Assembly (NCBI GenBank): GCA_963704705.1
Contig: OY969931.1
Location: forward strand, 390,001-422,000
Direction: 5' to 3'
Source: an uncultured bacterium
GTDB lineage: Bacteria; Patescibacteriota; Gracilibacteria; UBA1369; PNNO01
DNA length: 32,000 bases
Shown here one piece after another: positions 3,336 to 25,280 of the stretch. The notes under the pieces were generated by a model. It had not been told where the DNA came from and searched no databases. It was given only the letters and a program-made list of their open reading frames with translations. Both the position numbers and the translations under genes were made by a program. Every line of letters begins with the position of its first letter. The first letter of the stretch is position 1.

Positions 3336-3368
3336 ACACTAATTATAGCTCAAAACAGACAAAATGTC

Positions 3369-9464: not shown

Positions 9465-9488
9465 TCTAAGGCGTTCAATTACAAAATC

Positions 9489-9594: not shown

Positions 9595-9609
9595 ATGTTT
9601 AAAAAATAG

Positions 9610-9770: not shown

Positions 9771-9797
9771 TTATTTCGAAAAATCGCTTGTTTAAGC

Positions 9798-9941
9798 TTA
9801 CTTACGTCCTTTAATTAATCTTATCACAAGTACAACAACAGCGATGATAAGCAGAATATGGATGTATCCGCCCAACGTATACGAGCTTACAAGTCCAAGC
9901 ACCCATAAAATCAATAGGATTATAAAGATTGTCCAAAGCAT
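9798..9941 (-). CDS. small membrane protein resembling the lmo0937 family (47 aa)
   Basis: Absent from the ORF track because it is under 60 aa. My translation: MLWTIFIILLILWVLGLVSSYTLGGYIHILLIIAVVVLVIRLIKGRK. It resembles the widespread two-TM lmo0937-type family, recalled from memory. Confidence 0.65.
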   Translation of the reverse strand: MLWTIFIILLILWVLGLVSSYTLGGYIHILLIIAVVVLVIRLIKGRK

Positions 9942-9962
9942 ATATTTAAATTAAAAAATAAA

Positions 9963-10274
9963 TTATTTACGTTTCCACCAATTCAAAAATGTTACGATAG
10001 ATAACCAGATTATTACAACCAGCATTAATATTATGCCAAACACGGAATAACCCGGGAATGAACCCGTATTAGAATTTGAATTTAGACTTAGATATATAAT
10101 AACCCCTCCAATTATAAATATTCCGATTGAGATTATTAAATGTAATTTTAAAGGTTTGCTTTTTTGAACGGGCTGTTTGTTATTTTTTTGTGCAATTGAA
10201 TTTCCACATTTCGGGCATAATTCAGCATTATCTGATACTTCTGTATTGCACTCAGGGCAATGAATAAGATTCAT
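9963..10274 (-). CDS. zinc-ribbon domain membrane protein
   Basis: N-terminal CPEC...CPKCG zinc ribbon followed by two TM helices. The start is likely MNLIHCPEC at 10274, inside the 107-aa ORF. Confidence 0.7.
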   Translation of the reverse strand: MNLIHCPECNTEVSDNAELCPKCGNSIAQKNNKQPVQKSKPLKLHLIISIGIFIIGGVIIYLSLNSNSNTGSFPGYSVFGIILMLVVIIWLSIVTFLNWWKRK

Positions 10275-10387
10275 AATAATAAACAATAATTATTATGACG
10301 ATTATACCATAAGAATAATAATAAATCAGTCCATTGTTTGCTTCTTGAATAAATAGCTTTTCAAGCTTTTTTATATTTATAGGTGGG

Positions 10388-10409
10388 AGGGCGACCTTGC
10401 GATCGCCCT
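10388..10409 (-). terminator. hairpin downstream of the GC-rich lipoprotein gene (weak terminator candidate)
   Basis: AGGGCGA (10388-10394) pairs with TCGCCCT (10403-10409), giving a 7-bp stem. There is no clean U-tract on the minus strand. Confidence 0.3.
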
Positions 10410-10426
10410 TGAAAAGAGAAGTTGGT

Positions 10427-10921
10427 CTACATGTAGCAGTTGTCACCGCAGCCCGGGCCAGTGTTTGGATCGTTGTTCGGGATGCCGTCACCGTTGGAGT
10501 CCAGTTCCCCGTCACATGGCCCTGTTGGGTATGTGCAGGGATTGCAGGGATCCAGTTCGAGAGGGATCTCGGCGCGGTCCAGGACACCATCTCCATCTGA
10601 GTCTTTCTGAGAGGTCCACAGATCATCCAGTTCGAGCTCGGCCCAGCACTCATTGTTGGTCTTGATGTTCTCGAGACAGATGATGAAGGAATCCTCTCTC
10701 TGTTGTACACAGTTGATGCTGCATGCAGCACTGCTCGGATCCACTTCGCATTCCAGATCATTGACCTGGCATTGCAGTCCTGCAGTGTAGTAGTCCTGGA
10801 AGCAGTCACTGATGGACCGCGCGACCCACATGGTGTGAGGCGGACGATCTTCACCAGCAGTCTCTCCGCAAGCGGAAAAGACAGCGATGAACAGCACGAG
10901 CGAAATCAAACAGCGTTTCAT
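10427..10921 (-). CDS. GC-rich, Cys-rich secreted lipoprotein with thrombospondin-type-3-like calcium-binding repeats
   Basis: Signal peptide with lipobox (LVLFIAVFSAC). 16 Cys. Repeats DSDGDGVLD and DSNGDGIPNNDPN. Strong SD (AAGGAGGtttcgatATG). The line 10441-10500 counts 37/60 G+C. Confidence 0.8.
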   Translation of the reverse strand: MKRCLISLVLFIAVFSACGETAGEDRPPHTMWVARSISDCFQDYYTAGLQCQVNDLECEVDPSSAACSINCVQQREDSFIICLENIKTNNECWAELELDDLWTSQKDSDGDGVLDRAEIPLELDPCNPCTYPTGPCDGELDSNGDGIPNNDPNTGPGCGDNCYM

Positions 10922-11018
10922 ATCGAAACCTCCTTCAGGTGAAATGTTTGCAGACGAAAAGCCAACTTCTTAAAGATCAACTTGAATAGCACAGTAAGAC
11001 TGGCTATTTAAGAAGTGC

Positions 11019-11047
11019 ATTTTAGATAGATTCTCACATTCTGTCAA
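11019..11047 (-). promoter_or_regulatory. candidate promoter for the lipoprotein cassette (TTGACA-17-TAAAAT)
   Basis: On the minus strand, TTGACA spans 11047-11042, followed by a 17-nt spacer and TAAAAT at 11024-19. Lies about 95 nt upstream of the ATG at 10921. Confidence 0.4.
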
Positions 11048-11064
11048 TAGGGGTAGTTCGGAAG

Positions 11065-11092
11065 TTGTTAATTTTTAAAAAAGTGGTATAAT
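11065..11092 (+). promoter_or_regulatory. candidate promoter for the methyltransferase gene (TTGTTA-16-TATAAT)
   Basis: TTGTTA at 11065-11070 and a consensus TATAAT at 11087-11092, preceded by TGG (extended -10-like). Confidence 0.35.
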
Positions 11093-11117
11093 TTAAGCAG
11101 ATATTATTCTTCTAATT

Positions 11118-11834
11118 ATGCCAAAGAATTTTAGATTTAAGGAAAAATTAATGAATGGTGTATCTGAGTTTTCTCCAGTAGATAAAGCTTTAAGGAAACG
11201 AGCTGACTGGATTATTTCTGCAACAGGTGTTGAAGATGACATGACTGAAGGAGGGCATTATTTAGATGTTGGTACGGGAAAAGGACATATTACTCAACAA
11301 ATTTTAACAGATATGGAGCAAAAAGAAGCTCCTCTTGGTAGTTATTCGAGTATTGATATAGCTGATAAACCTCTTAAAAAAGTTCAAAAAAGAGAAAGGA
11401 AAAGATTACAACAGGTTGGAGTTGTTGAGAACACTAAAAATCCAATGGGATTTGCCTGGGCTTCAGCTGAAGCTTTACCTTATAAATCAGATAGTTTGGA
11501 TGGGGTTAGTTTCTTTTTTTCTATGCATCATGTAGATAAAGATGAGTTGGATGAGATAATTAATGAAGCAAAACGTTTAATTAAAAAAGAAGGAGGTCGC
11601 ATTTATATTGCTGAAGATTTGGTTGAAACAGAAGAACAAAGACAAATAACTGAAGATGTAGATCGAAAAGTTAATTGGGAAGATAAAGATGCCGAGCATA
11701 GTTATAAAAACAATAAAGAATGGGAGGAGTATTTTAATCAAATGGGATTGGAAGTTGTTAGGAGTACATTCTTTGAGACTGAGGAGAAAAAGGGGACCAT
11801 CCAACATGGTTTTTATGTATTGAAACTAAAATAA
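11118..11834 (+). CDS. class I SAM-dependent methyltransferase
   Basis: Motif I LDVGTGKGHIT and a post-I acidic residue. ALPYKSDSLDGVSFFFSMHHV is typical of the Methyltransf_11/UbiE-like fold. Confidence 0.8.
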   Translation: MPKNFRFKEKLMNGVSEFSPVDKALRKRADWIISATGVEDDMTEGGHYLDVGTGKGHITQQILTDMEQKEAPLGSYSSIDIADKPLKKVQKRERKRLQQVGVVENTKNPMGFAWASAEALPYKSDSLDGVSFFFSMHHVDKDELDEIINEAKRLIKKEGGRIYIAEDLVETEEQRQITEDVDRKVNWEDKDAEHSYKNNKEWEEYFNQMGLEVVRSTFFETEEKKGTIQHGFYVLKLK

Positions 11835-11850
11835 GATGTAATATAGACAT

Positions 11851-12099
11851 ATGCAAAATTACTATGTTTATTTGGCGCGATGCAGCGATGATAGTTTGTA
11901 TGCGGGTTATACAACTGATTTGAAGAATCGCGAAACAGCACATAATGAAGGTAAAGGCGCACGCTATACCCGTATGCGCAGGCCAATAAAGATTGTTTAT
12001 TTTGAGGAATTCAAAACAAAATCAGAGGCAATGAAGCGTGAATATGAATTAAAACACTGCAAGAAAGCTGAAAAAGAAAATCTGATAATATCAGCTTGA
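11851..12099 (+). CDS. GIY-YIG nuclease-family protein (small UPF0213/YhbQ type)
   Basis: 82 aa with YYVYLARCSDDSLYAGYTTDLKNR...H and a conserved E in the EYELK region. Confidence 0.85.
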   Translation: MQNYYVYLARCSDDSLYAGYTTDLKNRETAHNEGKGARYTRMRRPIKIVYFEEFKTKSEAMKREYELKHCKKAEKENLIISA

Positions 12100-12223
12100 C
12101 AAATATATTAAAACAATGATAAGCTTCGTTTGTCAAATCATTAGCTGTCCAAAAGGAGCATAGTCGAGTTTCAATTTAGGCAATCAAAGTTTGATACTAA
12201 ATTATTTTTTTACACATTGTAAA

Positions 12224-12430
12224 ATGCAAGAAGGAACTATTGCTCGTCTTGTTACGGACAGAGGGTTCGGATTCATCTCTCGAGAGGGAGAAGAAAAAGA
12301 TCTGTTTTTCCATTCAAATGAGCTTGTAGACGTAGATTACAAAGACCTTAAAGAAGGGGATAAAGTAACTTTTGAAGTTGCTGATGGTCCTAAAGGTCCT
12401 AATGCTACCAAGGTTACCCTAGTTAAATAG
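12224..12430 (+). CDS. cold-shock domain protein (CspA family)
   Basis: RNP1-like GFGFI and RNP2-like FFH motifs (GTIARLVTDRGFGFISREGEEKDLFFH). I took the ATG at 12224 (68 aa) inside the longer TTG ORF. Confidence 0.9.
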   Translation: MQEGTIARLVTDRGFGFISREGEEKDLFFHSNELVDVDYKDLKEGDKVTFEVADGPKGPNATKVTLVK

Positions 12431-12451
12431 GTTAATACTACAAAATTTAAA

Positions 12452-12489
12452 ACCGGAGAGCTCTTAAAGAGTTTCTCCGGTTTTTTTTA
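12452..12489 (+). terminator. rho-independent terminator after the cold-shock gene
   Basis: ACCGGAGA...TCTCCGGT stem followed by a run of 8 T. Confidence 0.7.
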
Positions 12490-12513
12490 TTTCGTTTATG
12501 ATAATATACTGCC

Positions 12514-13515
12514 ATGAATATTCAACTTTTAGAAAAACTCCTTGCTGACCAGCCCAGTTATCGCTTAACACAGGTGAAAAAGGCAATCTTTGGTAATCTT
12601 GTTTCGGATTGGGATCAGGTCACAACGCTTCCAAAAGAATTACGTGAGAAATTACAGGTGGAATGTCCTTTGACCATTGATTCGAACCTCTCAAAATCGA
12701 TCAATGAAAATACTGTTAAAGCGCTTATAAATCTTGAAGACGGGCTTTCGATCGAAGCGGTTTTAATGAAGCATAAAAACCGCAATACAGTTTGTGTTTC
12801 CAGTCAGGTCGGATGCTCTTTAAACTGCAGTTTCTGCGCCACAGGTAAAATGGGCTTTAAAAGAAATCTTGAGATGTCTGAGATTATTGAACAGATATTA
12901 TTTTTTTCCAGAATACTGAAAAATGAAGGGCAAAAAGTAACAAATGTTGTCTTTATGGGCATGGGAGAGCCTTTTTTGAATTATGATAACGTTGTCAGTG
13001 CAATAAGATATCTGAATGATAAATCCACTTTGAATTTGGGAATGCGGCATTTTTCTGTTTCAACTTCGGGCATTCCGGAGAAAATAAAAGCGTTCGCAGA
13101 TGAAAATTTTGAAGTGAATCTGGCTCTTTCTTTGCATGCTGCCGATGATGCGCTGCGTACAAAACTTATGCCTGTAAATAAAACTTATCCTCTTAAAAAT
13201 CTCTTGGATGCATTGGATTATTATCAAAATAAAACAAATCGCAAAATAATGTTTGAATATATTATGATAGATAAATTGAACGACAATGAATCCGATGCAA
13301 AAAAACTTATTCAAATTGCTCAAAATTATATTTGTATGGTTAATCTCATACCTTATAATCCTTCAAAAAACGCAATTTATAAGCCGTCAAACACACAACG
13401 AATAAAAAAGTTTAAAGCCATTCTCGAAAAAGCTAAAGTTAATGTTGTTCAAAGGTTTACGTTCGGCCAGGAGATTGATGCTGCGTGTGGTCAGCTGGCA
13501 AAGAGATCTCAATAA
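12514..13515 (+). CDS. rlmN: 23S rRNA/tRNA A2503-C2 methyltransferase, radical SAM (RlmN/Cfr family)
   Basis: Radical-SAM CxxxCxxC (GCSLNCSFCATG), GMGEPFLN, and a conserved C-terminal Cys (DAACGQL). Confidence 0.9.
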   Translation: MNIQLLEKLLADQPSYRLTQVKKAIFGNLVSDWDQVTTLPKELREKLQVECPLTIDSNLSKSINENTVKALINLEDGLSIEAVLMKHKNRNTVCVSSQVGCSLNCSFCATGKMGFKRNLEMSEIIEQILFFSRILKNEGQKVTNVVFMGMGEPFLNYDNVVSAIRYLNDKSTLNLGMRHFSVSTSGIPEKIKAFADENFEVNLALSLHAADDALRTKLMPVNKTYPLKNLLDALDYYQNKTNRKIMFEYIMIDKLNDNESDAKKLIQIAQNYICMVNLIPYNPSKNAIYKPSNTQRIKKFKAILEKAKVNVVQRFTFGQEIDAACGQLAKRSQ

Positions 13516-14110
13516 CAGTAACAAGATCTAAAGAAAAGGTTCGGTGAGATTTTACGTTGTAGAATTTTTCAATAATTGAATGGTCAAAACTATCCGCATA
13601 AAATAAATGTTTTGCAACAGGTTTAAACCAAAAATTTAAGTACCATTTTGGACGGGTGTAAAAAACAAGAAAGAATTTACCGCCGGGATTAAGGTGTTTT
13701 TGAGCGTTATTAACAAATTCAACAGGATTTTCAAGATGTGAAACAACCCATGTACAAATTAAAATATCAAATTTTTTATCCAAATTTTCAAGATTGGTGA
13801 CATCTCCGATCATGAATTCTACATTTTGTTTTTTTTTAAATTTATTTTTTGCGATTTGCAGCATTGAATCTGTGAAATCCATACCAAGATATTTTTTGAA
13901 TTTCAGTTTTAATTTGAAAATTTTATATAAATTAAGAGCTGTACCACAGCCGAGTTCCAAAATACTTTTACTTTCATCAATGTTTTGTTTTAAAAATTTT
14001 GTCAGAGTTTTTTCTGCCTGGCGTGCAATAATGAAATTCCACACAACCTTAAAGGGGTCGTACCATATTGCATTTAAACGCGAATACATTTTTTGAATTT
14101 GATTTTTCAT
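13457..14110 (-). CDS. class I SAM-dependent methyltransferase
   Basis: Motif I ILELGCGTA, then LGMDFT and FDILICTWVVSHL. I preferred the ATG at 14110 (MKNQIQ). The 3' end overlaps rlmN by about 59 nt in convergent orientation. Confidence 0.75.
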   Translation of the reverse strand: MKNQIQKMYSRLNAIWYDPFKVVWNFIIARQAEKTLTKFLKQNIDESKSILELGCGTALNLYKIFKLKLKFKKYLGMDFTDSMLQIAKNKFKKKQNVEFMIGDVTNLENLDKKFDILICTWVVSHLENPVEFVNNAQKHLNPGGKFFLVFYTRPKWYLNFWFKPVAKHLFYADSFDHSIIEKFYNVKSHRTFSLDLVTVIEISLPADHTQHQSPGRT

Positions 14111-14197
14111 GTATTCATGATAACACAATTATATTTTGCATATAAAAGGAAAATATTGTATATTATTAGTTAGTTTATTATTTCTAACCCTTTCTTT

Positions 14198-14416
14198 ATG
14201 AAAGCTGTTGGTTTAATTGCAATGATCCTGGTTGTAATTGGAGCTATTAATTGGGGCCTTATTGGTCTTGGTATGCTCATAGGATCAGATTTAAATGTTG
14301 TGAAATTGATTTTAGGATCAGTTCCAACTGTTGAAGCAATTGTATACCTATTGGTTGGAGTGTCTGGACTTCTTGTTGGATGGGTTCATGTGACAGGAAA
14401 ATGTGCTATGAAATAG
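14198..14416 (+). CDS. DUF378-type small membrane protein
   Basis: 72 aa with two TM helices and an INWGLIGL motif typical of DUF378. Confidence 0.7.
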   Translation: MKAVGLIAMILVVIGAINWGLIGLGMLIGSDLNVVKLILGSVPTVEAIVYLLVGVSGLLVGWVHVTGKCAMK

Positions 14417-14434
14417 TTAATGAAATTGAAAAAA

Positions 14435-14469
14435 AACCTGGTATAAAATATTTTGTGCCAGGTTTTTTT
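14435..14469 (+). terminator. rho-independent terminator of the DUF378 gene
   Basis: AACCTGG (14435-41) pairs with CCAGGTT (14458-64), followed by a T7 run. Confidence 0.65.
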
Positions 14470-14473
14470 GTAT

Positions 14474-14507
14474 ATGGAAAAGGCCGGCGCACAGGATGTG
14501 CGCCGGC
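14474..14507 (-). terminator. GC-rich hairpin terminator of the 242-aa GC-rich gene
   Basis: 10-bp stem GCCGGCGCAC (14483-92) / GTGCGCCGGC (14498-507) with a 5-nt loop. On the minus strand it is followed by TTTTCC. Lies 24 nt past the stop at 14531. Confidence 0.6.
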
Positions 14508-14530
14508 AGAGGCAGGCTTGGAGTCGGGGA

Positions 14531-15259
14531 CTAGAGGACGGTACGATCCGCTCCGCGGGTCGTCGGCGTTCCGGGGTTCGTGATGGCCTCGTAGATCACC
14601 TCGATGGTCGGCTTCTTGTCCGTCGTGAGCTTGAGCACGCCCGTGTGAGACCGGTTCATCTCGTCGATGGCCTCGATGGTGTTGGTGTGCCCGCTCGTGG
14701 TGACGAAGCGGAAGTCGCGGATGTTCTCGACGCCTTCTGGCAGAGGGGTGACCGTCGTGGTCCCGCAGGAGTAGAGGTAGTATGCCTCGGTGACGAGCTC
14801 AGAGTGCTCGTACTCGAGCACCGGCACGTTCCGCAGGTCGTCCGTGGTGAGACTGAAGAAGTTCCGAAGGGTGTTCAGCTCGGTCTTGCCGAGGAACTTG
14901 GTGGTGCCGATCCGGCTCACCGTGACACCCTCGATCTCGGGGACATCTGCGTTCTCGTAGGTCCCGAGCATGAACTTGGTGACCCAGATGATGCCGGCTG
15001 CGTCGTTGATGTACGCCTTCTTCTGGCCGGCATAGATGGCGATCAGACCCATGTCGGTGATACCGATGTAGGCCTTGATCTCCTTCAGCTGGATCACGCG
15101 CTCGAGGTGAGTGGTCCGGCTGGTGATGTTCGCCGCGAGGATCTCGGCCCACTGCTCGGTCGTGAACAGGTATGGGGTCTCCTTAGTCCTCTCGATGAAC
15201 ACGTTCCAGTCGGCCTTCATCATCTCGATGTCACGCTCGGTCAAAACAGGGATCTTCAT
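14531..15259 (-). CDS. hypothetical protein on the GC-rich island (242 aa)
   Basis: ATG at 15259 preceded by GGAGATGGGGAGGacaacaa. Strong third-position GC bias (AAG, GAG, ATC, TTC, CTC, ACC). Balanced amino-acid composition, unlike the R/G/D/L-rich ORF on the opposite strand. No family recognised. Confidence 0.7.
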   Translation of the reverse strand: MKIPVLTERDIEMMKADWNVFIERTKETPYLFTTEQWAEILAANITSRTTHLERVIQLKEIKAYIGITDMGLIAIYAGQKKAYINDAAGIIWVTKFMLGTYENADVPEIEGVTVSRIGTTKFLGKTELNTLRNFFSLTTDDLRNVPVLEYEHSELVTEAYYLYSCGTTTVTPLPEGVENIRDFRFVTTSGHTNTIEAIDEMNRSHTGVLKLTTDKKPTIEVIYEAITNPGTPTTRGADRTVL

Positions 15260-15674
15260 TTGTTGTCCTCCCCATCTCCTTCTAGGAGATGTGTTGTTTC
15301 GCCGCATCTAGCGGCTCTTCACCGGTACGCCACGGAATTGTGACGTACGGAAAGAAAATGAAAAACTCATCTATAAATTAAGCCTGATTATCAATATTGC
15401 AGTGCATCATTATTTGGACACACGCGATCAGTAATTTACGCAAATGAGGGCATAAAATCAAGGGAATTTTAATCGATTAACTAGACAAAATTACTCATAA
15501 TTTAGGTAAATAATTTATAAGTAAATAAGTAAAACAACTCAATTTATAAAATAAATATATATAATTCTTATTTAACCGAGAATAAGATATTTTTTGCGGC
15601 ATGCCTTCTTGGTTTTTATTTTGATTTAATACTATTATCATACAATAATCTAGCCCTTAGGTCAAGTAATGCGG

Positions 15675-15703
15675 TTGACAAAATTGATAATTTATATTAA
15701 AAT
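15675..15703 (+). promoter_or_regulatory. candidate promoter of the HTH/GHKL operon (TTGACA-17-TAAAAT)
   Basis: Consensus -35 TTGACA at 15675-80, a 17-nt spacer, and TAAAAT at 15698-703. Lies about 165 nt upstream of the ATG at 15869. Confidence 0.45.
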
Positions 15704-15737
15704 TGCTGCCAACTTTGGTGATTGTTGGTTTGGCTTA

Positions 15738-15749
15738 TTTGTGCACAAA
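15738..15749. promoter_or_regulatory. perfect 12-bp palindrome TTTGTGCACAAA (candidate operator)
   Basis: Read directly from the sequence. Lies about 35 nt downstream of the -10 element, inside the predicted leader of an operon whose first gene encodes an HTH protein. Confidence 0.3.
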
Positions 15750-15813
15750 CTCAGCATTCTTCAATAGAATTTTCATCAAAGTGATACTTGAAACATCGGC
15801 TAGCAACAAAAAC

Positions 15814-15830
15814 ATCCCAAATTCTGGGAT
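15814..15830. promoter_or_regulatory. inverted repeat ATCCCA-n5-TGGGAT (candidate operator or leader hairpin)
   Basis: 6-bp arms at 15814-19 and 15825-30, about 40 nt upstream of the ATG. Confidence 0.25.
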
Positions 15831-15868
15831 TTAAAGATAACAAAACTGAAAAAGGAAGGAGAAATCGT

Positions 15869-16678
15869 ATGAGTCGCTGGAAAGAAAGGCTTGACCCCGC
15901 ATGCGGGGCTGCAACACAACAATTGATGGAGAAAACGGGCTTCTCACAAGCTCAACTTGGAAAGATCCTCAACTGTGATCCCTCCGAGGTATCACGTGCG
16001 GCAAAGGGCTATCGACCTTTTGCAACAGTGCTGGCGCGTTTGTACATCATGACTGATGATAAGGCATTCGCGCCCAAGAACCCGCTTGAAAAAGAGCGGT
16101 TCGACAAGGAACGAGCTTCGCTTGTTCCAAGTCTTAAAAAGTATCTCGAAAAAGGGGTACCTGAATCGAAGGTCGCCAAGGACGATCCTAGCGACCTTAC
16201 TGCGAAGTTTATTATTATCCTTCAGACTCTGGGAGACATCCTTGGGGTTGATTGGAGGGATATTCGAGAGCTTGCGCAGGGTATTCTCGGTGAAAAACAA
16301 AGCAGACCAAGCGAGGTCATCGAATCTCCGTGGTTCGACCGGCTGATGTCCGGCGTCTCGGAAGTCAGTGGCCAACAGCTTGGTGGAGTTCGTTTTGTCC
16401 TTACAGAAGGGTCTTTTAGGCCTTTGAAGGGGCAATTCACACCTGCGGAAGTGCAGGATACTCGCCTTCTGCTTCAGGAGCTTCGGCGTAGGATTAACCT
16501 CGTGACCCAGCTGCAAAATAAAGCAGCCAGAGCACAGATTCTTAAGAAACTTGCACCGGAAATAAGGGAGCTCTACCTTGCTATTGAGCGATCTAAGGAT
16601 GCCGATCCGTCAAGAACTGCTGAACGAATCAGCCAACTCCGAAAACTAACCGCCCTCAAGGGGGCGGGAGAAAGGTAA
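15869..16678 (+). CDS. XRE-like helix-turn-helix protein with an uncharacterised C-terminal region of about 220 aa
   Basis: ATG at 15869 preceded by AAGGAAGGAGaaatcgt. HTH-like segment TQQLMEKTGFSQAQLGKILNCDPSEVSRAAKG (aa 16-46). Compositionally foreign relative to the flanks. The stop lies 6 nt before the next ATG. Confidence 0.75.
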   Translation: MSRWKERLDPACGAATQQLMEKTGFSQAQLGKILNCDPSEVSRAAKGYRPFATVLARLYIMTDDKAFAPKNPLEKERFDKERASLVPSLKKYLEKGVPESKVAKDDPSDLTAKFIIILQTLGDILGVDWRDIRELAQGILGEKQSRPSEVIESPWFDRLMSGVSEVSGQQLGGVRFVLTEGSFRPLKGQFTPAEVQDTRLLLQELRRRINLVTQLQNKAARAQILKKLAPEIRELYLAIERSKDADPSRTAERISQLRKLTALKGAGER

Positions 16679-16684
16679 AAAGCC

Positions 16685-18724
16685 ATGTCAGATAAGGCAG
16701 TGTATACCGTAACCGGAACAATCAACTACAGTCGCATGATGTCCGCTTTTATCGAGAGCGGACAGGCCGGCCGGCCCGCGTTTTTTGCCGGCATGAAGCA
16801 AGGTGTAGAGAACAGCGTCGACGCGGGCGCTTCGCGCATCAACATCGTGGTGAACCGCAGGGCGGACGCCTTGCGCATCGAAGATGATGGCTCCGGCTTC
16901 GGGGAGACCGAACTCCAGGGCTTTTTCAGCCTAATGGAGAGCCCCAAGCTTTTCGACCCCAAGAAGATCGGCCGCAACGACACGGGCCGCATCTTTCTCC
17001 TCCTTTTCGCAAAAACTCTACTTGTGTACACTGTCTCCAAAAAGTTTCCGGAGATGGTGCACTTCGAACTTGCCCGCGAATCTCTCGATGAGCTCGCAAA
17101 AAAGGGCAAGCTGGAGGCTAATATCCAGCGGGCTCTTAAACCCAGCTGGTGGGAGATCTGTGGAACGGGCAGCGCAATCTGCCTCACGAATGTGGACTGG
17201 TCTCGTGTCCCGTCCCCGTCCGTGATCCGCAAGGAATTTCCGCTCTATCTCAAGCCGTCAATCGCCCGAATGGTGTTCGTCAACGGCGAGCCGCTCGAGC
17301 CCCGTGCAGTGGTGGGTGAGGTCATCCAGGATGAGATCCTGGTCGACTATTTGCCCGGCATGCAGGAGATCGAGCTGTATATCCCGGAAAGCCGGAAGCA
17401 GCACGACGAGGTGCGCGTAGGCGGGTTTAACCCGATCTGCAGTCTCAAGGACATGGTTAGGCAGGGTGGCGCAACCTTTGGGATGCTAATTCCTGACAGC
17501 CTTCGTTACGGCGAAGTCTGCGGCGACATCTTCCTCCCCATGCTCAACGAGTTTCGGGGGCATGACGGACACTCCATCGATTCCGGATTTTTCAGTTCGG
17601 AGTGGGTGGAGCCTTTCATCCGCTTCCTTAGGGAAGAGGTGGAGCCGCGCATCAAGAAGGTGATGGAGGACCGCGAAGAGGATGCACGGACCAAGGAGAA
17701 CATCGCTCTGCTCAACGATGTTTGCGATGCGATTAACACTGCATATGAAAATGCTGTGCCGCCGCGCAAACTCGATGAGGAAGAGGACGACGATGATACG
17801 GATGATGACAAAGGCTCAAAGCCTGAGGAGTCTCCGATTCGGCTCAACTGCGGAATGCTTGTTACCCTCCCGGGTGAGCAGCATCGCATTCGGATAACGC
17901 GGTCCCTCGGGACCAGCGGTCAGTTCAATTGGCTCCACAGGGAGTCGGGTGGCCGCATCAGCCAGCGGAAAGGCAAGAGCGTTCTCTATACAGCGGGTAC
18001 CGAAACCGGAAAGTTCCGGCTCATCGTGGAGGATTCCACCGACTCCGACAAAAAGGCACGTGTCTCGATCCGCATCGTGGACGAGAAGCCTTTGGTGCTT
18101 TCGCCGGTGCACGTGCAGATCACAGCCGGCGATCGACAACGGTTCCGCGTGCGGAATCTCGGCGATACGTCGGGCCGCATCTGCTGGAAGCTCTCTAATG
18201 CTGCCGGCCTTCGGCTGAGTAGCGAAGAAGGTAGTCAGGTGGAGGTAATCACTTCACCGGATACACCTTCTGGTGAATATCAGATCACGGCTTCTGATTT
18301 TAAGAAGCCGGATTTGGCCTCGACCAGTAGTTTTGAGGTACTTCCTCGGGAAGACCACCTCATGCTCTGCATCGAAGGCAAATGGTACCTACTGGACATC
18401 GCGACCACGAGCATTCCGAACGTGGTCCATCGCGACCGGGCGGCCGCGCTCAACTTGGTGAAGGCCGATGGCAGCGCCATCGACGTGATGCAAATCGACC
18501 TCATGCATCCTGTCCTGCAGGGTGCCAAAGCGCTAAGTCGCTCCAACGAAGTGGTGATGCAGGCACTTCTGCCGCATCTCATCACCGCCCACCTCCAGGG
18601 CCTGGTGGAAGACGGAGAGGAAGAGTCCATGGACGAAAATTCCATGAGACAACGCCTTGCCGAAATCCACCGACAGATCATGTTGGCTCGCACTGGCCTC
18701 AGTTTCGGGGTCGATGACGAGTAG
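16685..18724 (+). CDS. GHKL (Bergerat-fold) ATPase of MutL/MORC type, with an acidic linker, two internal beta-rich repeats and an unknown C-terminal domain
   Basis: Motif I VENSVDAGASRI (aa 41-52; compare MutL ENSLDAGA). Motif II RIEDDGSGF (aa 64-72). Gly-rich KIGRNDTGR (aa 94-102). Acidic run DEEEDDDDTDDD (aa 364-375). Repeats at aa 384-466 and 468-553 share a V.(L/I)..G...R.R..R.LG.(T)SG...W pattern. The line 16801-16860 counts 37/60 G+C. Confidence 0.8.
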   Translation: MSDKAVYTVTGTINYSRMMSAFIESGQAGRPAFFAGMKQGVENSVDAGASRINIVVNRRADALRIEDDGSGFGETELQGFFSLMESPKLFDPKKIGRNDTGRIFLLLFAKTLLVYTVSKKFPEMVHFELARESLDELAKKGKLEANIQRALKPSWWEICGTGSAICLTNVDWSRVPSPSVIRKEFPLYLKPSIARMVFVNGEPLEPRAVVGEVIQDEILVDYLPGMQEIELYIPESRKQHDEVRVGGFNPICSLKDMVRQGGATFGMLIPDSLRYGEVCGDIFLPMLNEFRGHDGHSIDSGFFSSEWVEPFIRFLREEVEPRIKKVMEDREEDARTKENIALLNDVCDAINTAYENAVPPRKLDEEEDDDDTDDDKGSKPEESPIRLNCGMLVTLPGEQHRIRITRSLGTSGQFNWLHRESGGRISQRKGKSVLYTAGTETGKFRLIVEDSTDSDKKARVSIRIVDEKPLVLSPVHVQITAGDRQRFRVRNLGDTSGRICWKLSNAAGLRLSSEEGSQVEVITSPDTPSGEYQITASDFKKPDLASTSSFEVLPREDHLMLCIEGKWYLLDIATTSIPNVVHRDRAAALNLVKADGSAIDVMQIDLMHPVLQGAKALSRSNEVVMQALLPHLITAHLQGLVEDGEEESMDENSMRQRLAEIHRQIMLARTGLSFGVDDE

Positions 18725-18740
18725 AAAATTTGCTAGCCGA

Positions 18741-18775
18741 AAAGCCCGCTACCTAATAAGTAGCGGGCTTTTTCT
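18741..18775. terminator. bidirectional rho-independent terminator shared by the GHKL gene (+) and the 870-aa gene (-)
   Basis: 12-bp stem AAAGCCCGCTAC (18741-52) / GTAGCGGGCTTT (18760-71) with a 7-nt loop. T-run on the plus strand; TTTTCGG follows on the minus strand. Confidence 0.75.
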
Positions 18776-18783
18776 TATATAAT

Positions 18784-21396
18784 TTATTTAGATTTTGAAA
18801 ACTTTTCGGTCCACTTTTTATTTGATCGCATTCTATCTTCTTTTTCTTTTTCTTTTGCAGCATTAATTTTTTCTCTTGCTTCTATACTCAATTTTATATC
18901 TTCAGGCAAAGCTTCCGCTAAATCGTAGGCAAGATAAGTAGGCAAACACCAAAGACTTTGAGCTGAATCAGATCTTGCATGTTTATGTACAAATTTCCAA
19001 ACTATAAATAATTGATCGCTTGATTCACGTAAATTTTTTTTTGGTGGTAGAGATCTGATTTCATTTACTGTCTGAGATATAGGTGATAATTCCTGCGCGA
19101 GTGCATTTAAATCTTCCATTTCACCGCCAAAAATATCAGCAATATGCTTATTTAAATGATCTTTATCGATTCTAAGTCCCCATACTTTATGCCTTAATCC
19201 CCATGCAGTAGTTAAAAGTATCGCATTTAACTGGGTTGGTGTTAATTCCATAATTTCATTTCTGAATTCAATTTTGATTGTTTCACTTTGGTTTGATGAT
19301 TCCAGAACTTTAACTATTTCTTTTTCTGGTTCTTCTTCTGGTTCAAGTTGTGATTTTGTAGTTTTTTCAATAGCAATTTTAATAAGATCAAAAGCTTCTT
19401 TAATTTTATTTTTTGCATCAATTTTCAAATTAGATTTTTTTTCATCAATAATAATTAATATCTGCCTGTAAAAATGTATGCTGGCGTTAAAACCTCTCAT
19501 AAAGGCATCCAGTTCGGGATTTTTTTCGAATAACTCTTTATTTGATTCTCCGATTATTTTTTCGGGATCGGCACCTAGCGCAATATCGTAAATTTTCTTT
19601 TCAAAAAATTTATCACCTATTTGAATTTCGTTTATTATTTTTATAATAAAATTATCAATTTTTTTAATTTCATCAACTAATTGCTGAACTTGGTCAAAAA
19701 GGGAAGTCAGTTTTTCCCATATCTCAAGATATCTTTTAATCTTATCCCAATTTTCATTGAATTTAGCATCACAAAGGTCAATGTCTTCGGGATTAGATTG
19801 TCTTATTTTCATTGAAGCTAAAAGTGCCGATGATTCAATTGCCCTTAAAGCGCTGACTTCAGCGGTTATTTCATCTTTTAATTCTCTCAGCTTTGGTAAA
19901 TATTCATCAAGTTTACTTTTATTTTCATTGATTTCATTTAAATCCGGATTCCTTAATTCGTAGTGTTTTCTAACCAGATCAACAAAACCTGATCTCATAT
20001 TTAACAATTCAGCAAAAAGCGAAAGTTGATTCAGGTTTTCTTCAACGATAGTAATAGTACGTTGAAGTTTTTCTTGTACTTCGTAGCATACCGTATCAAC
20101 GTCGAGTGCTATTGGGTTTTTTTCTTCATTGTTTACCGGTTCTGGTTCAGCTTCAGCTTCGGTTTCAGTATGTGGCTCCCCAAAAAACATTTCTTGATCA
20201 TTTGGTTCAACTTGCTCAGCCTCAGGTTCTTCATCAGCCTGAGAAGCCGTTTGACTAATGATCTCAGCAACTTCTTCATCGGTGACATCGCAAACTTTAG
20301 TTGGATTATTATAGCTGTTTATTAAATTTTCAATTTCAGAAGAAGTTCTGAAATCAAGTCCGCAATGAAATTGATGATTTACTTTATCTGCTATTGTTTC
20401 AAATATATTGCCATTATTATCGTTAGTTTCTGATGTATAAATGTCTAGAATATATGCGATTTCATCATCTGTAATCGGATACATTTCGGTTTTTTGTTCT
20501 TCGGTACATTCATTAAGACATTTTATCCTGTCATTTAAAAGAATTTTTTTTACTTTATCCGGATTTAGCATTAAATCGTTATTTTCAGAGGATTCAATTA
20601 AAGCAGTTAAATTATCGATATCTCTTAAAATTGTTATAACATTAGTTAGAACAGAATTTTTAAATAATTCTGCTGTATCTTGAGTTAAATATCTAAATTC
20701 GAATTTAAAATTTAAAATTGCGTCAATAGTTGCATCTCGGAGTTTTATAAAAGTAAGGTCTCTCTTGTTAATTAATTTAAGGAATTCTTCATAAATTTTT
20801 TCAGAAAGCATTTCGAATAAACAAATAATTTCATTAATATGTTCAATTGAAATTTCTTCTTCAAAATCCACATCATCCAATTCATTCAAACTCGCAATAA
20901 AATCTTCAGCGAAAACCAGTACAATGCCATAAATTTTTTCTAAAATAAATTTAATTTCAAAAGATTCTGTTGCACCTTGTTCTCTGCAATCATTGAATAA
21001 TTGTTCACGATTGGATAGTTCGGGAATTATGTCCTCCTTTTCTTCATCAATAAAGGTATATTGATCCAATTGAGAACAAACAGTGTCGATGGCTTCAATT
21101 AAAGGATATCTTTCGTTTGAATGAGGTGTACTTAAATTTGGTAAAGTAAATATTCTTTTCTTTTTAGTTAAATACCTTAATGCACGTCTTCTGATTTCAT
21201 TTCTTTGCTGCATACTATCAAGGCTTCCATTGCTGCAAACATTTTTTACCTCTTTGAGGATCGCTGTGGTTGCATCATCAATTACTCTTTTAATTGATTT
21301 TTTTGAGCCAGCACTGCTTATTCTATCCACTTGCTCTTTAAGTGAAATTGTTTGCGCTTTAATCAAATTATCTATAATTTGTCGAGAAACACCCAT
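18784..21396 (-). CDS. large orphan hypothetical protein (870 aa), predicted helical and coiled-coil rich with an acidic E/P/A linker
   Basis: Long uninterrupted ORF with host-like AT-rich codon usage and no SD. No signal peptide or TM segment. Acidic segment EEPEAEQVEPNDQEMFFGEPHTETEAEAEPEPVNNEE. No recognisable catalytic motif. Confidence 0.75.
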   Translation of the reverse strand: MGVSRQIIDNLIKAQTISLKEQVDRISSAGSKKSIKRVIDDATTAILKEVKNVCSNGSLDSMQQRNEIRRRALRYLTKKKRIFTLPNLSTPHSNERYPLIEAIDTVCSQLDQYTFIDEEKEDIIPELSNREQLFNDCREQGATESFEIKFILEKIYGIVLVFAEDFIASLNELDDVDFEEEISIEHINEIICLFEMLSEKIYEEFLKLINKRDLTFIKLRDATIDAILNFKFEFRYLTQDTAELFKNSVLTNVITILRDIDNLTALIESSENNDLMLNPDKVKKILLNDRIKCLNECTEEQKTEMYPITDDEIAYILDIYTSETNDNNGNIFETIADKVNHQFHCGLDFRTSSEIENLINSYNNPTKVCDVTDEEVAEIISQTASQADEEPEAEQVEPNDQEMFFGEPHTETEAEAEPEPVNNEEKNPIALDVDTVCYEVQEKLQRTITIVEENLNQLSLFAELLNMRSGFVDLVRKHYELRNPDLNEINENKSKLDEYLPKLRELKDEITAEVSALRAIESSALLASMKIRQSNPEDIDLCDAKFNENWDKIKRYLEIWEKLTSLFDQVQQLVDEIKKIDNFIIKIINEIQIGDKFFEKKIYDIALGADPEKIIGESNKELFEKNPELDAFMRGFNASIHFYRQILIIIDEKKSNLKIDAKNKIKEAFDLIKIAIEKTTKSQLEPEEEPEKEIVKVLESSNQSETIKIEFRNEIMELTPTQLNAILLTTAWGLRHKVWGLRIDKDHLNKHIADIFGGEMEDLNALAQELSPISQTVNEIRSLPPKKNLRESSDQLFIVWKFVHKHARSDSAQSLWCLPTYLAYDLAEALPEDIKLSIEAREKINAAKEKEKEDRMRSNKKWTEKFSKSK

Positions 21397-21464
21397 TTAA
21401 CAATATATTTAAAAAATAAGACAACATTAAACATTGAAATAGATAATTTGTCAATGATTTTATC

Positions 21465-21884
21465 TTAATCATTAATTGATGTTTCCACTTTTTTTCGTGT
21501 TTCTTTTATTTCACTTCTTTTATGTTTTATTTTTAGTATTTTTTCTTTTGCCCTTTTACTTCTTTTTTGTTTTTGTTTTTTTAATTTAAAGATTTTTTTG
21601 GCTTTTTCAGATTCCTTACCTTTAATTAATTCTTCTATTTTATTTATTAAAAGCTTATAAGCTGACATTCTGTTTTTTTCGCGTTCGCGGTGCCTTTGAA
21701 CTTTAACTTCAACTCCGGTAGGAATATGTTTCAGCCACACAGCATTAGAAGTTTTATTGATTTTTTGACCGCCATGTCCCGAACCTCTAACAAACTTTTC
21801 TTCAATATCAAATGCTTTAATTTCAAGCTCTTCGGCTTTTTTTATGCTGTCTGGTTTTAATTCAATTGGGAATTCATTTTTCAT
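21465..21884 (-). CDS. arfB: ArfB/YaeJ-like peptidyl-tRNA hydrolase (RF-1 domain, GGQ motif)
   Basis: 139 aa with GSGHGGQKINKTSNAV and a long basic C-terminal tail (KKQKQKRSKRAKEK...), as in alternative ribosome-rescue factor B. Confidence 0.8.
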   Translation of the reverse strand: MKNEFPIELKPDSIKKAEELEIKAFDIEEKFVRGSGHGGQKINKTSNAVWLKHIPTGVEVKVQRHREREKNRMSAYKLLINKIEELIKGKESEKAKKIFKLKKQKQKRSKRAKEKILKIKHKRSEIKETRKKVETSIND

Positions 21885-21926
21885 ACAAATATAATACTGT
21901 ATAATCGCTATAGTTTAAAAGGAATT

Positions 21927-22565
21927 ATGATTATTTTAGGATTAAATACAGCAACAAACCTCTCGCAAATCGCAATTGTTAAAAATCACGAAGTTTTGGC
22001 GGAAAATTCATGGAAATCCGAGCAAAACGAAGCGGAAACACTTCTTCCAAATATTAAAAAATTGCTAAAAAAAGCACAATTAGATTGGAAAGATATAGAT
22101 AAAATTGCAGTAATCAAAGGCCCTGGCCCATTTACTGCACTTCGAGTATCAATAGCAGTTGCAAATGGCATAGCTTATGCATTAAACATACCGATTTGGG
22201 GGATTCCAATTCAGGATTACTGGCAAAACGCTTATGAAGGCGACTTCGTGCTTCAGTCAGGCTTAAATCGCGTATATTACAAAGGTAAATTAATTGATTT
22301 TGAAGAATTTTTGCACAAAGCAGAGGGCAAGCTTTGCGGCCATCTCAAAGAATCCCAAATTGCGCAGCTTAAAGCCAAAAATGTGGAATTTGTCGACGAG
22401 AAATCACTTAGTGATTTGGGATCACTCGGTGATTTGGGATCACTCGGTGATCGCACATTACTCGGTAATTTATTAAAAATCGCAAACTACAAAGATGAGA
22501 AAATGATCAAACCCGAGTATTTTGCGCCTCCAACTATCACCAAAAGCACTAAATCTTATAAATAA
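21927..22565 (+). CDS. tsaB: tRNA t6A37 biosynthesis protein TsaB (inactive Kae1/TsaD paralogue)
   Basis: N-terminal MIILGLNTATN... and KGPGPFTALRVSIAVANGIA are typical of TsaB/YeaZ. Confidence 0.8.
   Translation: MIILGLNTATNLSQIAIVKNHEVLAENSWKSEQNEAETLLPNIKKLLKKAQLDWKDIDKIAVIKGPGPFTALRVSIAVANGIAYALNIPIWGIPIQDYWQNAYEGDFVLQSGLNRVYYKGKLIDFEEFLHKAEGKLCGHLKESQIAQLKAKNVEFVDEKSLSDLGSLGDLGSLGDRTLLGNLLKIANYKDEKMIKPEYFAPPTITKSTKSYK
22403..22470 (+). repeat. in-frame 18-bp tandem repeat (about 3.5 copies) inside tsaB
   Basis: ATCACTTAGTGATTTGGG / ATCACTCGGTGATTTGGG / ATCACTCGGTGATCGCAC / ATTACTCGGTAAT... encodes SLSDLGSLGDLGSLGDRTLLGN. Each unit contains the palindrome GATCAC-n3-GTGATC. Confidence 0.8.
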
Positions 22566-23239
22566 TGGCACTTTACATTGTTTCAACACCCATAGGAAAT
22601 CTTGACGATATTACTTTACGTGCGATTGATACGCTTAAAAAGGTCGATATCATTGCTTGTGAAGATACGCGTCACAGCCAAATTCTGCTAAACAAATACG
22701 AAATAAAAAAACCGTTATTAAGCTATCATTCACATAGCGGTCAAACCAAACTCGACAAATTAATAGCCGCACTTGAAGAGGGAAGCGAAATAGCTCTGAT
22801 AAGTGATGCAGGAACACCAGGGATTTCTGACCCTGCTTATGGATTAATCAAAGCCGCTCTTGAGCAAAATATTGAGATTATTCCAATGCCCGGAGCATGT
22901 GCTTTTTTAGCTGCGCTTGTTGCTAGCGGTCTTCCAATGAATCAATTTATGTATTTGGGCTTTCTCCCTATTAAAAAAGGCCGTCAAACATTACTTAAAT
23001 CATTGGCAGAAGAAGAAAAAACAGTAGTTTTTTATGAATCCCCACACAGAATTCAAAAAACATTAAGCCAGCTCGAGGAGTTTTTGGGACCGGAACGAAA
23101 AATCGTAATTGGCCGTGAACTAACAAAAATGCATGAAGAATTTGTACGGGGAACCATTAATGAAGTTAAAGAAATATTTGCCAAGCGTGCGCCAAAAGGG
23201 GAGTTTACCGTTGTACTCGGCGGCAAAGGCGTGTTATAA
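22565..23239 (+). CDS. rsmI: 16S rRNA (cytidine1402-2'-O)-methyltransferase
   Basis: LYIVSTPIGNLDDITLRAIDTLKKVDIIACEDTRHSQILL and YESPHR motifs, 224 aa. Confidence 0.9.
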   Translation: MALYIVSTPIGNLDDITLRAIDTLKKVDIIACEDTRHSQILLNKYEIKKPLLSYHSHSGQTKLDKLIAALEEGSEIALISDAGTPGISDPAYGLIKAALEQNIEIIPMPGACAFLAALVASGLPMNQFMYLGFLPIKKGRQTLLKSLAEEEKTVVFYESPHRIQKTLSQLEEFLGPERKIVIGRELTKMHEEFVRGTINEVKEIFAKRAPKGEFTVVLGGKGVL

Positions 23240-23246
23240 ATACATT

Positions 23247-23894
23247 ATGAAACTAAAATTTCAAAAAGGCGTAACCCTTATAGAGTTAATTCTCGTTATT
23301 GCAATTATCTCAATTATAACAGTATTTGCGGTATTTTCAGGAACAACTTTAGGTGAGCAGGTAAGATTCGCTTCTGCTTATCGGAGTGTGGAAGGTATGC
23401 TTTCAGAAGCCAGAAACAGGTCGCTTTCAGGTGAATCTTACCCTGATTATAGTGATTATGATGGAGATGGGCTTTCTGAAGCACAGGGCGATTTGATTTT
23501 GCCTTATGGATATATTGTTAATTTTCATACTGATGCAGATGGTATAATAACTGTTTCTTTATATGCTGATTTATTGAGAATTGAGTCGATCGCCGGTCAG
23601 CTTGAAACTGATGCTGATGATTTAATTAAAACAATCACTTTGCCTGATGATATTGAATTTGATTTAACTGCTCAGGATAAATTTGGTGTAGCAGAAACTA
23701 TATCAGATCCAAATGATTTTTCAGTTCTTTATAAAACTCCTGATGCTGCTTTTGAATTGATAGATTACAATCCAACCACACTTCAAATTGAAATAAAACA
23801 GGTTAACGATAGCGGTGAATTAAAAAGGAGTAAATATTTATTTTTACATTATTTGTATGGGATTCCTGAAGTGTTAAGCGATCCCTTTATTTAA
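23247..23894 (+). CDS. prepilin-type N-terminal cleavage/methylation domain protein (type IV pilin or pseudopilin-like)
   Basis: MKLKFQKG|VTLIELILVIAIISIITVFAV is a class III signal peptide. I took the ATG at 23247 inside the longer ORF. Confidence 0.8.
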   Translation: MKLKFQKGVTLIELILVIAIISIITVFAVFSGTTLGEQVRFASAYRSVEGMLSEARNRSLSGESYPDYSDYDGDGLSEAQGDLILPYGYIVNFHTDADGIITVSLYADLLRIESIAGQLETDADDLIKTITLPDDIEFDLTAQDKFGVAETISDPNDFSVLYKTPDAAFELIDYNPTTLQIEIKQVNDSGELKRSKYLFLHYLYGIPEVLSDPFI

Positions 23895-23932
23895 AAAAAC
23901 CGGCCACATAATTTAAATGCAGCCGGCTTTTT
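23893..23932. terminator. candidate bidirectional terminator between convergent genes
   Basis: A7-CCGGC...GCCGG-C-T5. The stem is short (5 bp) with a 17-nt loop. Confidence 0.35.
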
Positions 23933-23947
23933 AAAAGAATAAATTTT

Positions 23948-25231: not shown

Positions 25232-25280
25232 ACGTCATTGGTTAAAGGGTATATCAATATTTTAAACGTGGCTGTAAAAG

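Follow-up and report, generated by a model that had tools for sequence, protein, structure and literature searches.

GHKL ATPases such as MutL, GyrB, Hsp90 and the MORC proteins undergo ATP-driven dimerisation of their N-terminal domains, with a transducer domain that senses the gamma-phosphate. Among prokaryotic MORC proteins, ~70% of gene neighbourhoods contain SFII helicases, nucleases or methylases (Iyer, Abhiman and Aravind 2008, PMC2292703), and in the GHKL-Shedu protein VcSduA a GHKL domain is able to gate a defence effector (PMC12137116). Here we describe a cassette of three genes, A, B and the convergent gene C, in contig OY969931.1 (positions 390,001 to 422,000; this whole stretch of 32,000 nucleotides is referred to as the window, and coordinates are counted from its first letter). 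It is an accessory block of 5.8 kb in the genome of a Peregrinibacteria bacterium. This host belongs to the candidate phyla radiation; its genome is small, has ~33% GC and uses the standard genetic code. Its PNPase shares 82–83% identity with the enzymes of marine single-cell and metagenome-assembled genomes labelled Patescibacteria or simply bacterium, and 57–79% with those of genomes labelled Peregrinibacteria or Peribacteria; an identical copy of the ATPase lies on a contig of 1.37 Mb. Gene B encodes an atypical GHKL protein that is MORC-like rather than MutL-like. The GHKL/MORC ATPases known or predicted in prokaryotic conflict systems always lie beside helicases, nucleases or methylases, whereas the partners encoded here lack known domains; literature searches found no description of the three-gene cassette. 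A previous interpretation of this DNA from its letters (the sequence-only reading) had proposed a foreign operon of two genes at 15675–18775, and had thereby omitted the conserved gene C (18784–21396) and its promoter.

A three-gene cassette in a variable slot

The limits of the cassette (15648–21465) are defined by blastn comparison with a syntenic relative, L091, and by the junctions read from the sequence. With a nucleotide identity of 85%, L091 aligns contiguously by blastn with window positions 9745–15647 and 21466–27855 and carries 18 bp (L091 9615–9632) in place of 15648–21465. The block missing from L091 comprises a promoter, a leader, genes A and B, a terminator, gene C and the gene C promoter; the cassette is thus accessory, with a presence/absence polymorphism between these two genomes. 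On the left it begins just past the −35 hexamer of the promoter of a neighbouring 242-aa gene, and on the right it ends at the stop codon of an arfB-like gene with an RF-1 domain. At locus L094 the same slot (5515–9180) contains a gene for an unrelated 1221-aa GEVED-domain protein. Flanked by the arfB-like gene on one side and the 242-aa gene on the other, the slot is empty in L091, occupied by the GEVED-domain gene in L094 and by the cassette here, and behaves as a variable hotspot. No target-site duplication, att site, inverted ends or integrase was found at the cassette ends; direct repeats of the form GTCAA..TAAT at the two ends were rejected as att sites, being the −35 hexamers of two promoters.

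The cassette is organised as two convergent transcription units, each with a near-consensus sigma-70 promoter, that share one terminator. Gene A (15869–16678, + strand; 269 aa) has an ATG start at 15869 preceded by an AAGGAGA Shine-Dalgarno sequence and a stop codon at 16676–16678. Gene B (16685–18724, + strand; 679 aa) starts with the ATG at 16685 after a gap of 6 nt and has the Shine-Dalgarno sequence GGGAGAAAGG. These are the first and second genes of the sequence-only reading, which had correctly recognised their spacing, a Shine-Dalgarno sequence for each and the self-contained nature of their transcription unit. An alternative TTG start for gene A at 15788 is unsupported, because the extension that it would add is not conserved in locus L001. 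Gene C (18784–21396, − strand; 870 aa) is convergent with gene B and homologous to the genes in the same position at L001, L004, L005, L010 and L096.

Ten further independent loci, together with the window, provide eleven contexts in which to compare the cassette. A gene A homologue lies directly upstream of the ATPase gene in 11/11 of them, with start and stop codons of the two genes overlapping or abutting in L007, L100 and L102. The sequence-only reading had made consistent linkage of the ATPase to a helix-turn-helix (HTH) gene a condition of its proposal; the gene is indeed constant, and the HTH itself is absent from L004, L005 and L010. A gene for a large protein (835–2048 aa) with no Pfam match lies directly downstream of the ATPase gene in all nine loci that extend far enough, usually in convergent orientation and once co-directional. 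The flanks outside the three genes differ at every locus; at L007 the cassette begins ~200 nt after a tRNA gene (3370–3445). The gene C homologues of L004, L005 and L010 contain 10–19 in-frame TGA codons, and gene A of L004 contains two, so that the hosts evidently read TGA as sense (genetic code 25 or 4). The cassette thus spans lineages with different genetic codes, these three hosts presumably being Gracilibacteria or Absconditabacteria. Other family loci are GC-rich.

The ATPase family is rare. A word-based search of 5.8 billion proteins found 7 clusters, and aside from an identical copy there is no gene B relative with more than 44% identity. Exhaustive HMMER searches yield 213 gene B representatives with E <1e-30; among the matches listed, ~110 are proteins of 600–730 aa and the C-terminal domain is covered by 69, while the remainder are giant proteins with immunoglobulin (Ig) repeats. 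Twenty representatives that were checked belong to clusters of 1–4 members, none with an informative name. No ATPase homologue was found by a single-pattern scan of the GTDB species-representative genomes, a set that includes metagenome-assembled and single-amplified genomes with 82–83% PNPase identity and to which the window's own genome apparently does not belong. A scan of JGI metagenomes gave one additional locus only. The family was not detected in IMG/VR scanned with two sub-family alignments, and tblastn with two family members returned no member from GenBank phages or PLSDB plasmids; a match on a Methylobacter plasmid is a generic GHKL protein outside the family.

Gene B encodes a MORC-like ATPase with Ig-like repeats and a new C-terminal domain

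The gene B protein is predicted to consist of a series of segments, several of which were delineated in an AlphaFold2 model built from a 7-sequence alignment (mean predicted local distance difference test score, pLDDT, 77.5). A MORC-type GHKL ATPase domain (residues 1–170) is supported by Pfam, AlphaFold2 and Foldseek, and is followed by a second alpha/beta domain that is transducer-like (residues 171–305), a long helix (308–354), an acidic linker (357–382), two Ig-like repeats that the model renders as beta-sandwich domains (383–468 and 469–556) and a C-terminal beta/alpha domain (557–670) with conserved Y568 and H636. The acidic linker and the internal repeats had both been seen in the sequence-only reading; the linker is predicted to be disordered, and the repeats are homologous to each other (hhalign probability 98.9%, E 1.4e-17). 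The repeats are Ig-like, and their region matches Big_2, nucleoporin-210 and Ig-type domains of Robo. A match to MukF_C (E 0.04) was dismissed as chance.

The Bergerat-fold motifs VENSVDAGA (residues 41–49) and DDGSGF (67–72), also recognised previously, lie within a region that matches the Pfam model HATPase_c_3 (PF13589) at 36.4 bits, above the cut-off of 25. A Foldseek search of the PDB returns the DNA-bound MORC2 ATPase first (E 2.5e-10), followed by Hsp90/TRAP1, the topoisomerase II ATPase and MORC3. The alignment with MORC2 covers 408 columns and extends past the GHKL domain, with a template modelling (TM) score by target of 0.45 and a root-mean-square deviation (rmsd) of 7.3 Å. A profile of 14 gene B sequences likewise matches MORC2 (E 7e-10) better than MutL (E 8e-6). 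Since MORC2 is the best solved relative both by sequence profile and by fold, gene B is assigned to the MORC side of the MutL/MORC type proposed earlier, its resemblance to MORC2 being greater than that to MutL.

Residues around the nucleotide are well conserved: N43, D46, D67, G69, G71, G96, G101 and T161-G162 are kept in at least 81% of the 69 full-length relatives, and the invariant S86-x-K88 of the family aligns with S87-A-K89 of MORC2. Other conserved positions in these 69 proteins are N288, the tryptophans of the Ig cores, Y568 and H636; no conserved transducer lysine was identified among them. Judging from these residues, the nucleotide pocket in the MORC-type ATP-binding module of gene B is intact. 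The exception is in motif I. Q39, which is invariant in the 14 closest members, aligns with the MORC2 glutamate situated four residues before the motif-I asparagine, a position that we take to be that of the catalytic glutamate (E35 in MORC2 and E29 in MutL), and a different glutamate, E42, immediately precedes the Mg-binding Asn (N−1). Across ~110 relatives motif I (window residues 39–47) alternates between Q..EN..DA and the canonical E...N..DA. This alternation suggests that the acidic residue has moved by one helical turn, and reduced hydrolysis is an equally possible explanation.

A variable partner protein and a fast-evolving large protein

Gene A was described in the sequence-only reading as having an N-terminal HTH. 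The XRE-like signal at approximately residues 15–60 stays below threshold: HTH_31 reaches 18.9 bits where 27 are required, HTH_3 reaches 14.3 of 23, and every other HTH model in Pfam is also below its cut-off. The top matches of a gene A profile in the PDB are all HTH proteins, with E values of only 0.05–0.7 (0.05–0.2 for XRE, HipB and MBF1 proteins), and nothing significant was found with this profile in either Pfam or the PDB. The HTH-like module is present as a single copy in the window, L001, L007, L096, L100 and L102, as two copies in L098 and as three in L103, where a 428-aa homologue (8666–9952) has three tandem units of the form GLW..EC..IG....TVSKY ahead of the C-terminal domain. It is missing altogether from L004, L005 and L010, whose gene A proteins are 122–130 aa long. 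The C-terminal helical domain of ~100 aa (approximately residues 175–262 in the window) is kept in every member and has the motif F-[VI]-LT..F..L.G....E[IV].DT..L..ELRRR...ELY. Because the HTH copy number varies from 0 to 3 and the C-terminal domain is in all members, the C-terminal domain rather than the HTH is the conserved part and, on these comparisons, is evidently the element obligately partnered with the ATPase.

The product of gene C is acidic (19% D+E) and, judging by its sequence, probably all-helical. From the N- to the C-terminus it contains a basic patch, an N..F[HY]GG...R motif and an acidic linker of low complexity; a collinear alignment of five members also shows an LGA.P..L[IL]G motif. 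It ends in a domain of ~130 aa with the pattern L[ST]..Q...L..L...G[KR]...L.K[YF]...PPKK...W and a Lys-rich tail. The protein is 33% identical to the product of the L001 downstream gene (E 8e-152), and hhalign relates it to those of L004, L005 and L010 (98.7%, E 2e-16) and of L096 (95.5%, E 1.4e-8). Homology is demonstrated for 6/8 of the big proteins compared, with L007 borderline and L098 not demonstrable. The 1444-aa downstream protein of L103, compared by blastp only, matches that of L010 weakly (E 5e-4); the L103 neighbourhood contains many unknown genes and a DUF5131 gene, DUF5131 being presumably a phage-associated family. No relative of gene C was found in Pfam, the PDB or PHROG, and a word-based homologue search returned only the protein itself. 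Between the window and L001, gene C is 33% identical where gene B is 44% identical, and it is barely alignable at more distant loci. Such rapid divergence would fit a component engaged in an arms race.

Promoters, leader and terminator

The promoter of the gene A–gene B operon (15675–15703, + strand) consists of TTGACA at 15675–15680, a 17-nt spacer and TAAAAT at 15698–15703, as had been read previously. It scores 11/12 and is the top promoter-like site within 14300–21700. An equivalent TTGAC[AT] promoter is situated upstream of the cassette in L001, L004, L005, L007, L010, L096 and L098. The gene C promoter, also read from the sequence, lies at 21426–21454 on the − strand (TTGACA—17 nt—TTTAAT), and identical hexamers are found upstream of gene C in L001.

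A 5′ leader of ~165 nt (15704–15868, + strand) separates the operon promoter from gene A and contains a hairpin or palindrome, ATCCCAaattcTGGGAT, at 15814–15830, as well as an ATTCT-N5-AGAAT inverted repeat. Over the leader core the window and L001 (leader at 3248–3422) share 72% identity, compared with 48–54% for coding DNA. The L001 leader also forms a hairpin at the equivalent position, though from a different sequence, the leaders of L007 and L096 contain hairpin-plus-U-run elements, and a GTTCTTTnACA-like motif that is possibly shared occurs in the leaders of L004, L005, L010 and L096. The leader has no match in Rfam. Its conservation, together with the inverted repeat, the hairpins and the recurrent motif, suggests that expression of the operon is regulated through an operator or an attenuator, a lead drawn from few sequences.

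Genes B and C converge on a common intrinsic terminator hairpin at 18739–18773 (−22.6 kcal/mol, z −4.9). This terminator was noted in the sequence-only reading with a 12-bp stem; the stem is 14 bp.

Proposed function of the cassette

The cassette is interpreted, tentatively, as a nucleic-acid-directed conflict module in which a MORC-type ATPase would drive defence against phages or mobile DNA, or their silencing. The contacts between the proteins, DNA as the target and the role in defence are all inferred. Protein B would bind ATP and dimerise through its N-terminal domains to form an ATP-gated dimeric clamp like those of other GHKL proteins, with the transducer-like domain, both Ig-like repeats and the C-terminal domain holding partners or nucleic acid. 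Protein A, tightly coupled through synthesis from the same mRNA, would dock onto B by its C-terminal helical domain, and its HTH-like modules, where present, may bring the complex to DNA or auto-regulate the operon through the conserved leader. Protein C could act as a specificity or effector-scaffold subunit that recognises the target or serves as a physical effector. Invading DNA would then be entrapped, compacted or silenced by ATP-driven clamping rather than by a recognisable nuclease; entrapment, compaction or silencing is favoured over cleavage because A, B and C all lack an enzymatic effector domain.

If the cassette does restrict mobile DNA, it would represent a non-nucleolytic, MORC-style mechanism in bacteria. 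To our knowledge candidate phyla radiation bacteria carry few known defence systems, to which the cassette would add a further defence-type system. Experimental handles are provided by the clean comparison with an empty site, by the conserved leader and by the way motif I alternates between Q..EN and E...N.

The conflict reading is supported by the linkage of the three genes across loci with different flanks, the accessory status of the cassette, the MORC-type module, the tight coupling of A and B and the rapid divergence of C, and also by signs of defence or mobile elements near distant members, as at L100 and beside the tRNA gene at L007. Several observations weigh against a role in conflict. 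Profile searches revealed no recognisable nuclease, NADase, pore former or protease domain in A, B or C, and none of the window proteins matches a PADLOC model at E values up to 1. Most loci are flanked by housekeeping genes and do not lie in defence islands. The one defence context is at a distant locus, L100 (1–5688), where the A–B pair is found beside genes for a type IIG restriction-modification enzyme (E 7.5e-100) and a TIR effector-like protein, together with an integrase-like gene. The link to DNA through gene A is weakened by an HTH that is sub-threshold here and missing at three loci, and with Gln in the place of the usual catalytic Glu, protein B could turn over ATP slowly or not at all unless E42 compensates.

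The housekeeping flanks, mostly without an integrase, could instead point to lineage-restricted cell biology, with the cassette as a MORC- or condensin-like nucleoid organiser or gene silencer in which A is the DNA adaptor, B the clamp and C the scaffold. The lack of a toxic effector domain in the three proteins is in keeping with such a role, as is DNA-bound MORC2 as the closest structure, given that eukaryotic MORCs compact and silence chromatin; the basic termini and acidic linker of gene C also resemble those of chromatin scaffolds. We regard this as unlikely, if a serious candidate, because the cassette is absent from the 85%-identical L091 and its slot in L094 holds unrelated cargo, because the family is rare and patchy (7 word-search clusters and ~100 HMMER representatives with 1–4 members each) and because gene C diverges more rapidly than a core structural protein should.

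Base composition and the origin of the cassette

The contrast in base composition on which the sequence-only reading had based its 'foreign' operon is real: the GC content of third codon positions (GC3) is 0.49 in gene A and 0.70 in gene B, compared with 0.28 in the flanking genes. Gene C, within the same cassette, has a GC3 of 0.20. The same split into GC-rich A and B and GC-poor C recurs in L001 and L007, and since their B proteins are only 44% and 31% identical to that of the window, the split is old and maintained. In 6/7 of the code-11 loci gene B has 53–58% GC whatever the GC content of the flanks (0.34–0.63); in the seventh, L100, it has 66% GC like its flanks (66%).

What had looked like one 'foreign GC-rich block' resolves into the split cassette and, separate from it, the 242-aa gene. 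With a GC3 of 0.89, the latter, to which no function is assigned (14531–15259, − strand), stands out from the 0.2–0.3 typical of genes in this genome. It has its own promoter (TTGACC—17 nt—TATGAT; 15665–15637, − strand) and a GC-rich terminator (14483–14507). Syntenic orthologues are present in L091 (10001–10723; GC3 0.94) and L094 (9460–10170; GC3 0.86), to which its four-fold degenerate sites are only 65–74% identical, and the four-fold sites of the neighbouring genes are near saturation. Its GC3 having been kept despite this divergence, the composition is maintained and is not the fading trace of a recent transfer. The reading of the GC contrast as a sign of foreign origin is therefore not upheld, gene C being host-like and the GC-rich neighbour vertically conserved. 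Genes that stay GC-rich in an AT-rich genome are a warning against taking such a contrast for recent transfer, and a puzzle in themselves. The AlphaFold2 model of the 242-aa protein has a pLDDT of 42. On an identical Logan contig (L006) the stored gene call is on the opposite strand to the 242-aa gene and encodes 289 aa.

GC-rich genes are scattered through this AT-rich genome. One of them, a lipoprotein-like gene of 164 aa (10427–10921, − strand; GC 0.55, GC3 0.64) whose product has a signal peptide with a Cys and DxDGDG calcium-binding-type repeats, lies inside the block syntenic with L091. Elsewhere in the window, the trkH potassium-transporter gene is split into 7999–8961 and 8993–9436, which match profile positions 19–292 and 348–491; possible explanations are a frameshift, decay to a pseudogene and a gene that is genuinely split.

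A chimeric assembly join is excluded as the source of the compositional boundaries, because an independent Logan assembly of run ERR11571143 is 100% identical over 13153–28724.

The maintained composition can be combined with the proposed conflict function. The trio would then be a nuclease-free immune or silencing system, a bacterial counterpart of eukaryotic MORC silencing in which the adaptor A and the hypervariable scaffold C load the clamp B and invading DNA is neutralised by ATP-driven entrapment or compaction, with selection at the nucleotide level for GC-rich ATPase codons alien to the AT-rich hosts, for example to throttle translation of a dangerous protein. As a joint proposal this is distinctly unlikely to hold in full.

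Another possible origin would be that of a stand-alone two-gene defence pair, an XRE-type HTH regulator or sensor with a MutL/MORC-type ATPase, acquired recently from a GC-richer donor. The constant pairing of A and B at all eleven loci and a GC3 far above that of the flanks agree with this, and the 53–58% GC of gene B in 6/7 code-11 loci could reflect exchange of the pair. It is nevertheless improbable. Gene C lies within the same indel and is co-conserved with the pair, with a host-like GC3, and the recurrence of the GC-rich A/B and GC-poor C pattern in L001 and L007 marks it as old. No relative above 44% identity to protein B is present among 5.8 billion proteins, the HTH is dispensable across the family, and vertically conserved GC-rich genes lie next door.

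Comparison with described systems

Protein B is similar in length to HtpG and also has a charged linker, and Foldseek returns many Hsp90, TRAP1 and HtpG chains with E values of ~1e-9. These features would fit a dedicated Hsp90-like chaperone, made up of an N-terminal ATPase, a middle domain, the charged linker and a C-terminal dimerisation domain, whose client, to be folded or held, would be the large protein C; A would then be a co-chaperone. Full-length fold alignments with Hsp90 have an rmsd of at least 20 Å, and the profile matches to HtpG and TRAP1 are restricted to the N-domain and weak (E 0.0015–0.008, against 7e-10 for MORC2). Ig-like domains and an HTH-bearing partner are not features of Hsp90, and a chaperone of this kind is very improbable.

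The Bergerat motifs of gene B are held in common with the N-terminal domain of MutL, and its RP..F....(K/Q)..VEN..DAGA segment presumably resembles residues 22–39 of E. coli MutL. The matches to MutL N-terminal domains are weak (E 6e-7 in NCBIfam and 9e-4 in the PDB), and the MutL equivalog model TIGR00585, whose cut-off is 180 bits, reaches 28.7 and covers residues 41–81 only. The C-terminal dimerisation and endonuclease domain of MutL is absent, its place being taken by the Ig-like repeats and the new C-terminal domain. Neither the DQHA endonuclease motif nor an HxH motif is present in gene B, and there is no MutS family among the Pfam assignments of the neighbouring genes, both in agreement with the sequence-only reading, which had reported neither an endonuclease motif nor mutS. 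Despite the weak MutL matches and the sharp GC boundaries, the possibilities of a canonical mismatch-repair MutL, a sensor histidine kinase (HATPase_c at 14.7 bits against a cut-off of 26.4, E 0.044, with no HisKA domain) and an assembly chimera (the architecture and GC contrast being the same in L001 and L007, and the boundary of the 242-aa gene syntenic in L091 and L094) are refuted.

The phage RIIA proteins and VcSduA (GHKL-Shedu; PMC12137116) resemble gene B in having a module of similar size that joins an N-terminal GHKL domain to a middle domain. Gene B has no significant sequence relation to either and lacks the DUF4263 nuclease. Comparison of RIIA models with the gene B model gives a TM score of 0.3 and an rmsd of ~6 Å over ~330 residues. 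Within PHROGs gene B matches only PHROG 6203 (E 0.003), a family of unknown function.

TmtA is taken here to be Tiamat, which presumably resembles paraMORC3. Tiamat and the paraMORC families 1–5 (PMC2292703) are, like gene B, GHKL ATPases with family-specific C-terminal extensions, and have a known or predicted role in defence. PADLOC TmtA models give weak matches in 14/37 family members, covering ~65 residues (motifs I–II) of profiles with ~1500 positions, and gene B of the window has no match to them; the earlier statement that no named defence system matches this locus accordingly stands for the window proteins. No RecB/PD-(D/E)xK, TIR or HxH C-terminal domain is present in gene B, the distinction from paraMORC being drawn by description. 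MzaB matches gene B with an E value of only 0.09 (NCBIfam).

The likeness to MORC proteins (MORC2, MORC3 and the prokaryotic MORCs; PMC2292703) covers a HATPase_c_3-type GHKL domain and may extend over the transducer-like domain that follows it, and the cassette is, like the prokaryotic MORCs (PMC2292703), accessory and patchily distributed. Gene B differs in motif I, with Gln in place of the catalytic Glu at N−4 in the window's clade and a Glu at N−1, and in the region after the transducer-like domain, where two Ig-like domains and a new C-terminal domain are present rather than a CW domain, a coiled coil or an S5 domain only. Unlike prokaryotic MORC and paraMORC systems, 0/11 cassettes include an SFII helicase, a restriction-fold, HNH or Vsr nuclease, or a DNA methylase. 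Matching no named system, the cassette is new and rare, and it falls within the known theme of GHKL/MORC conflict systems.

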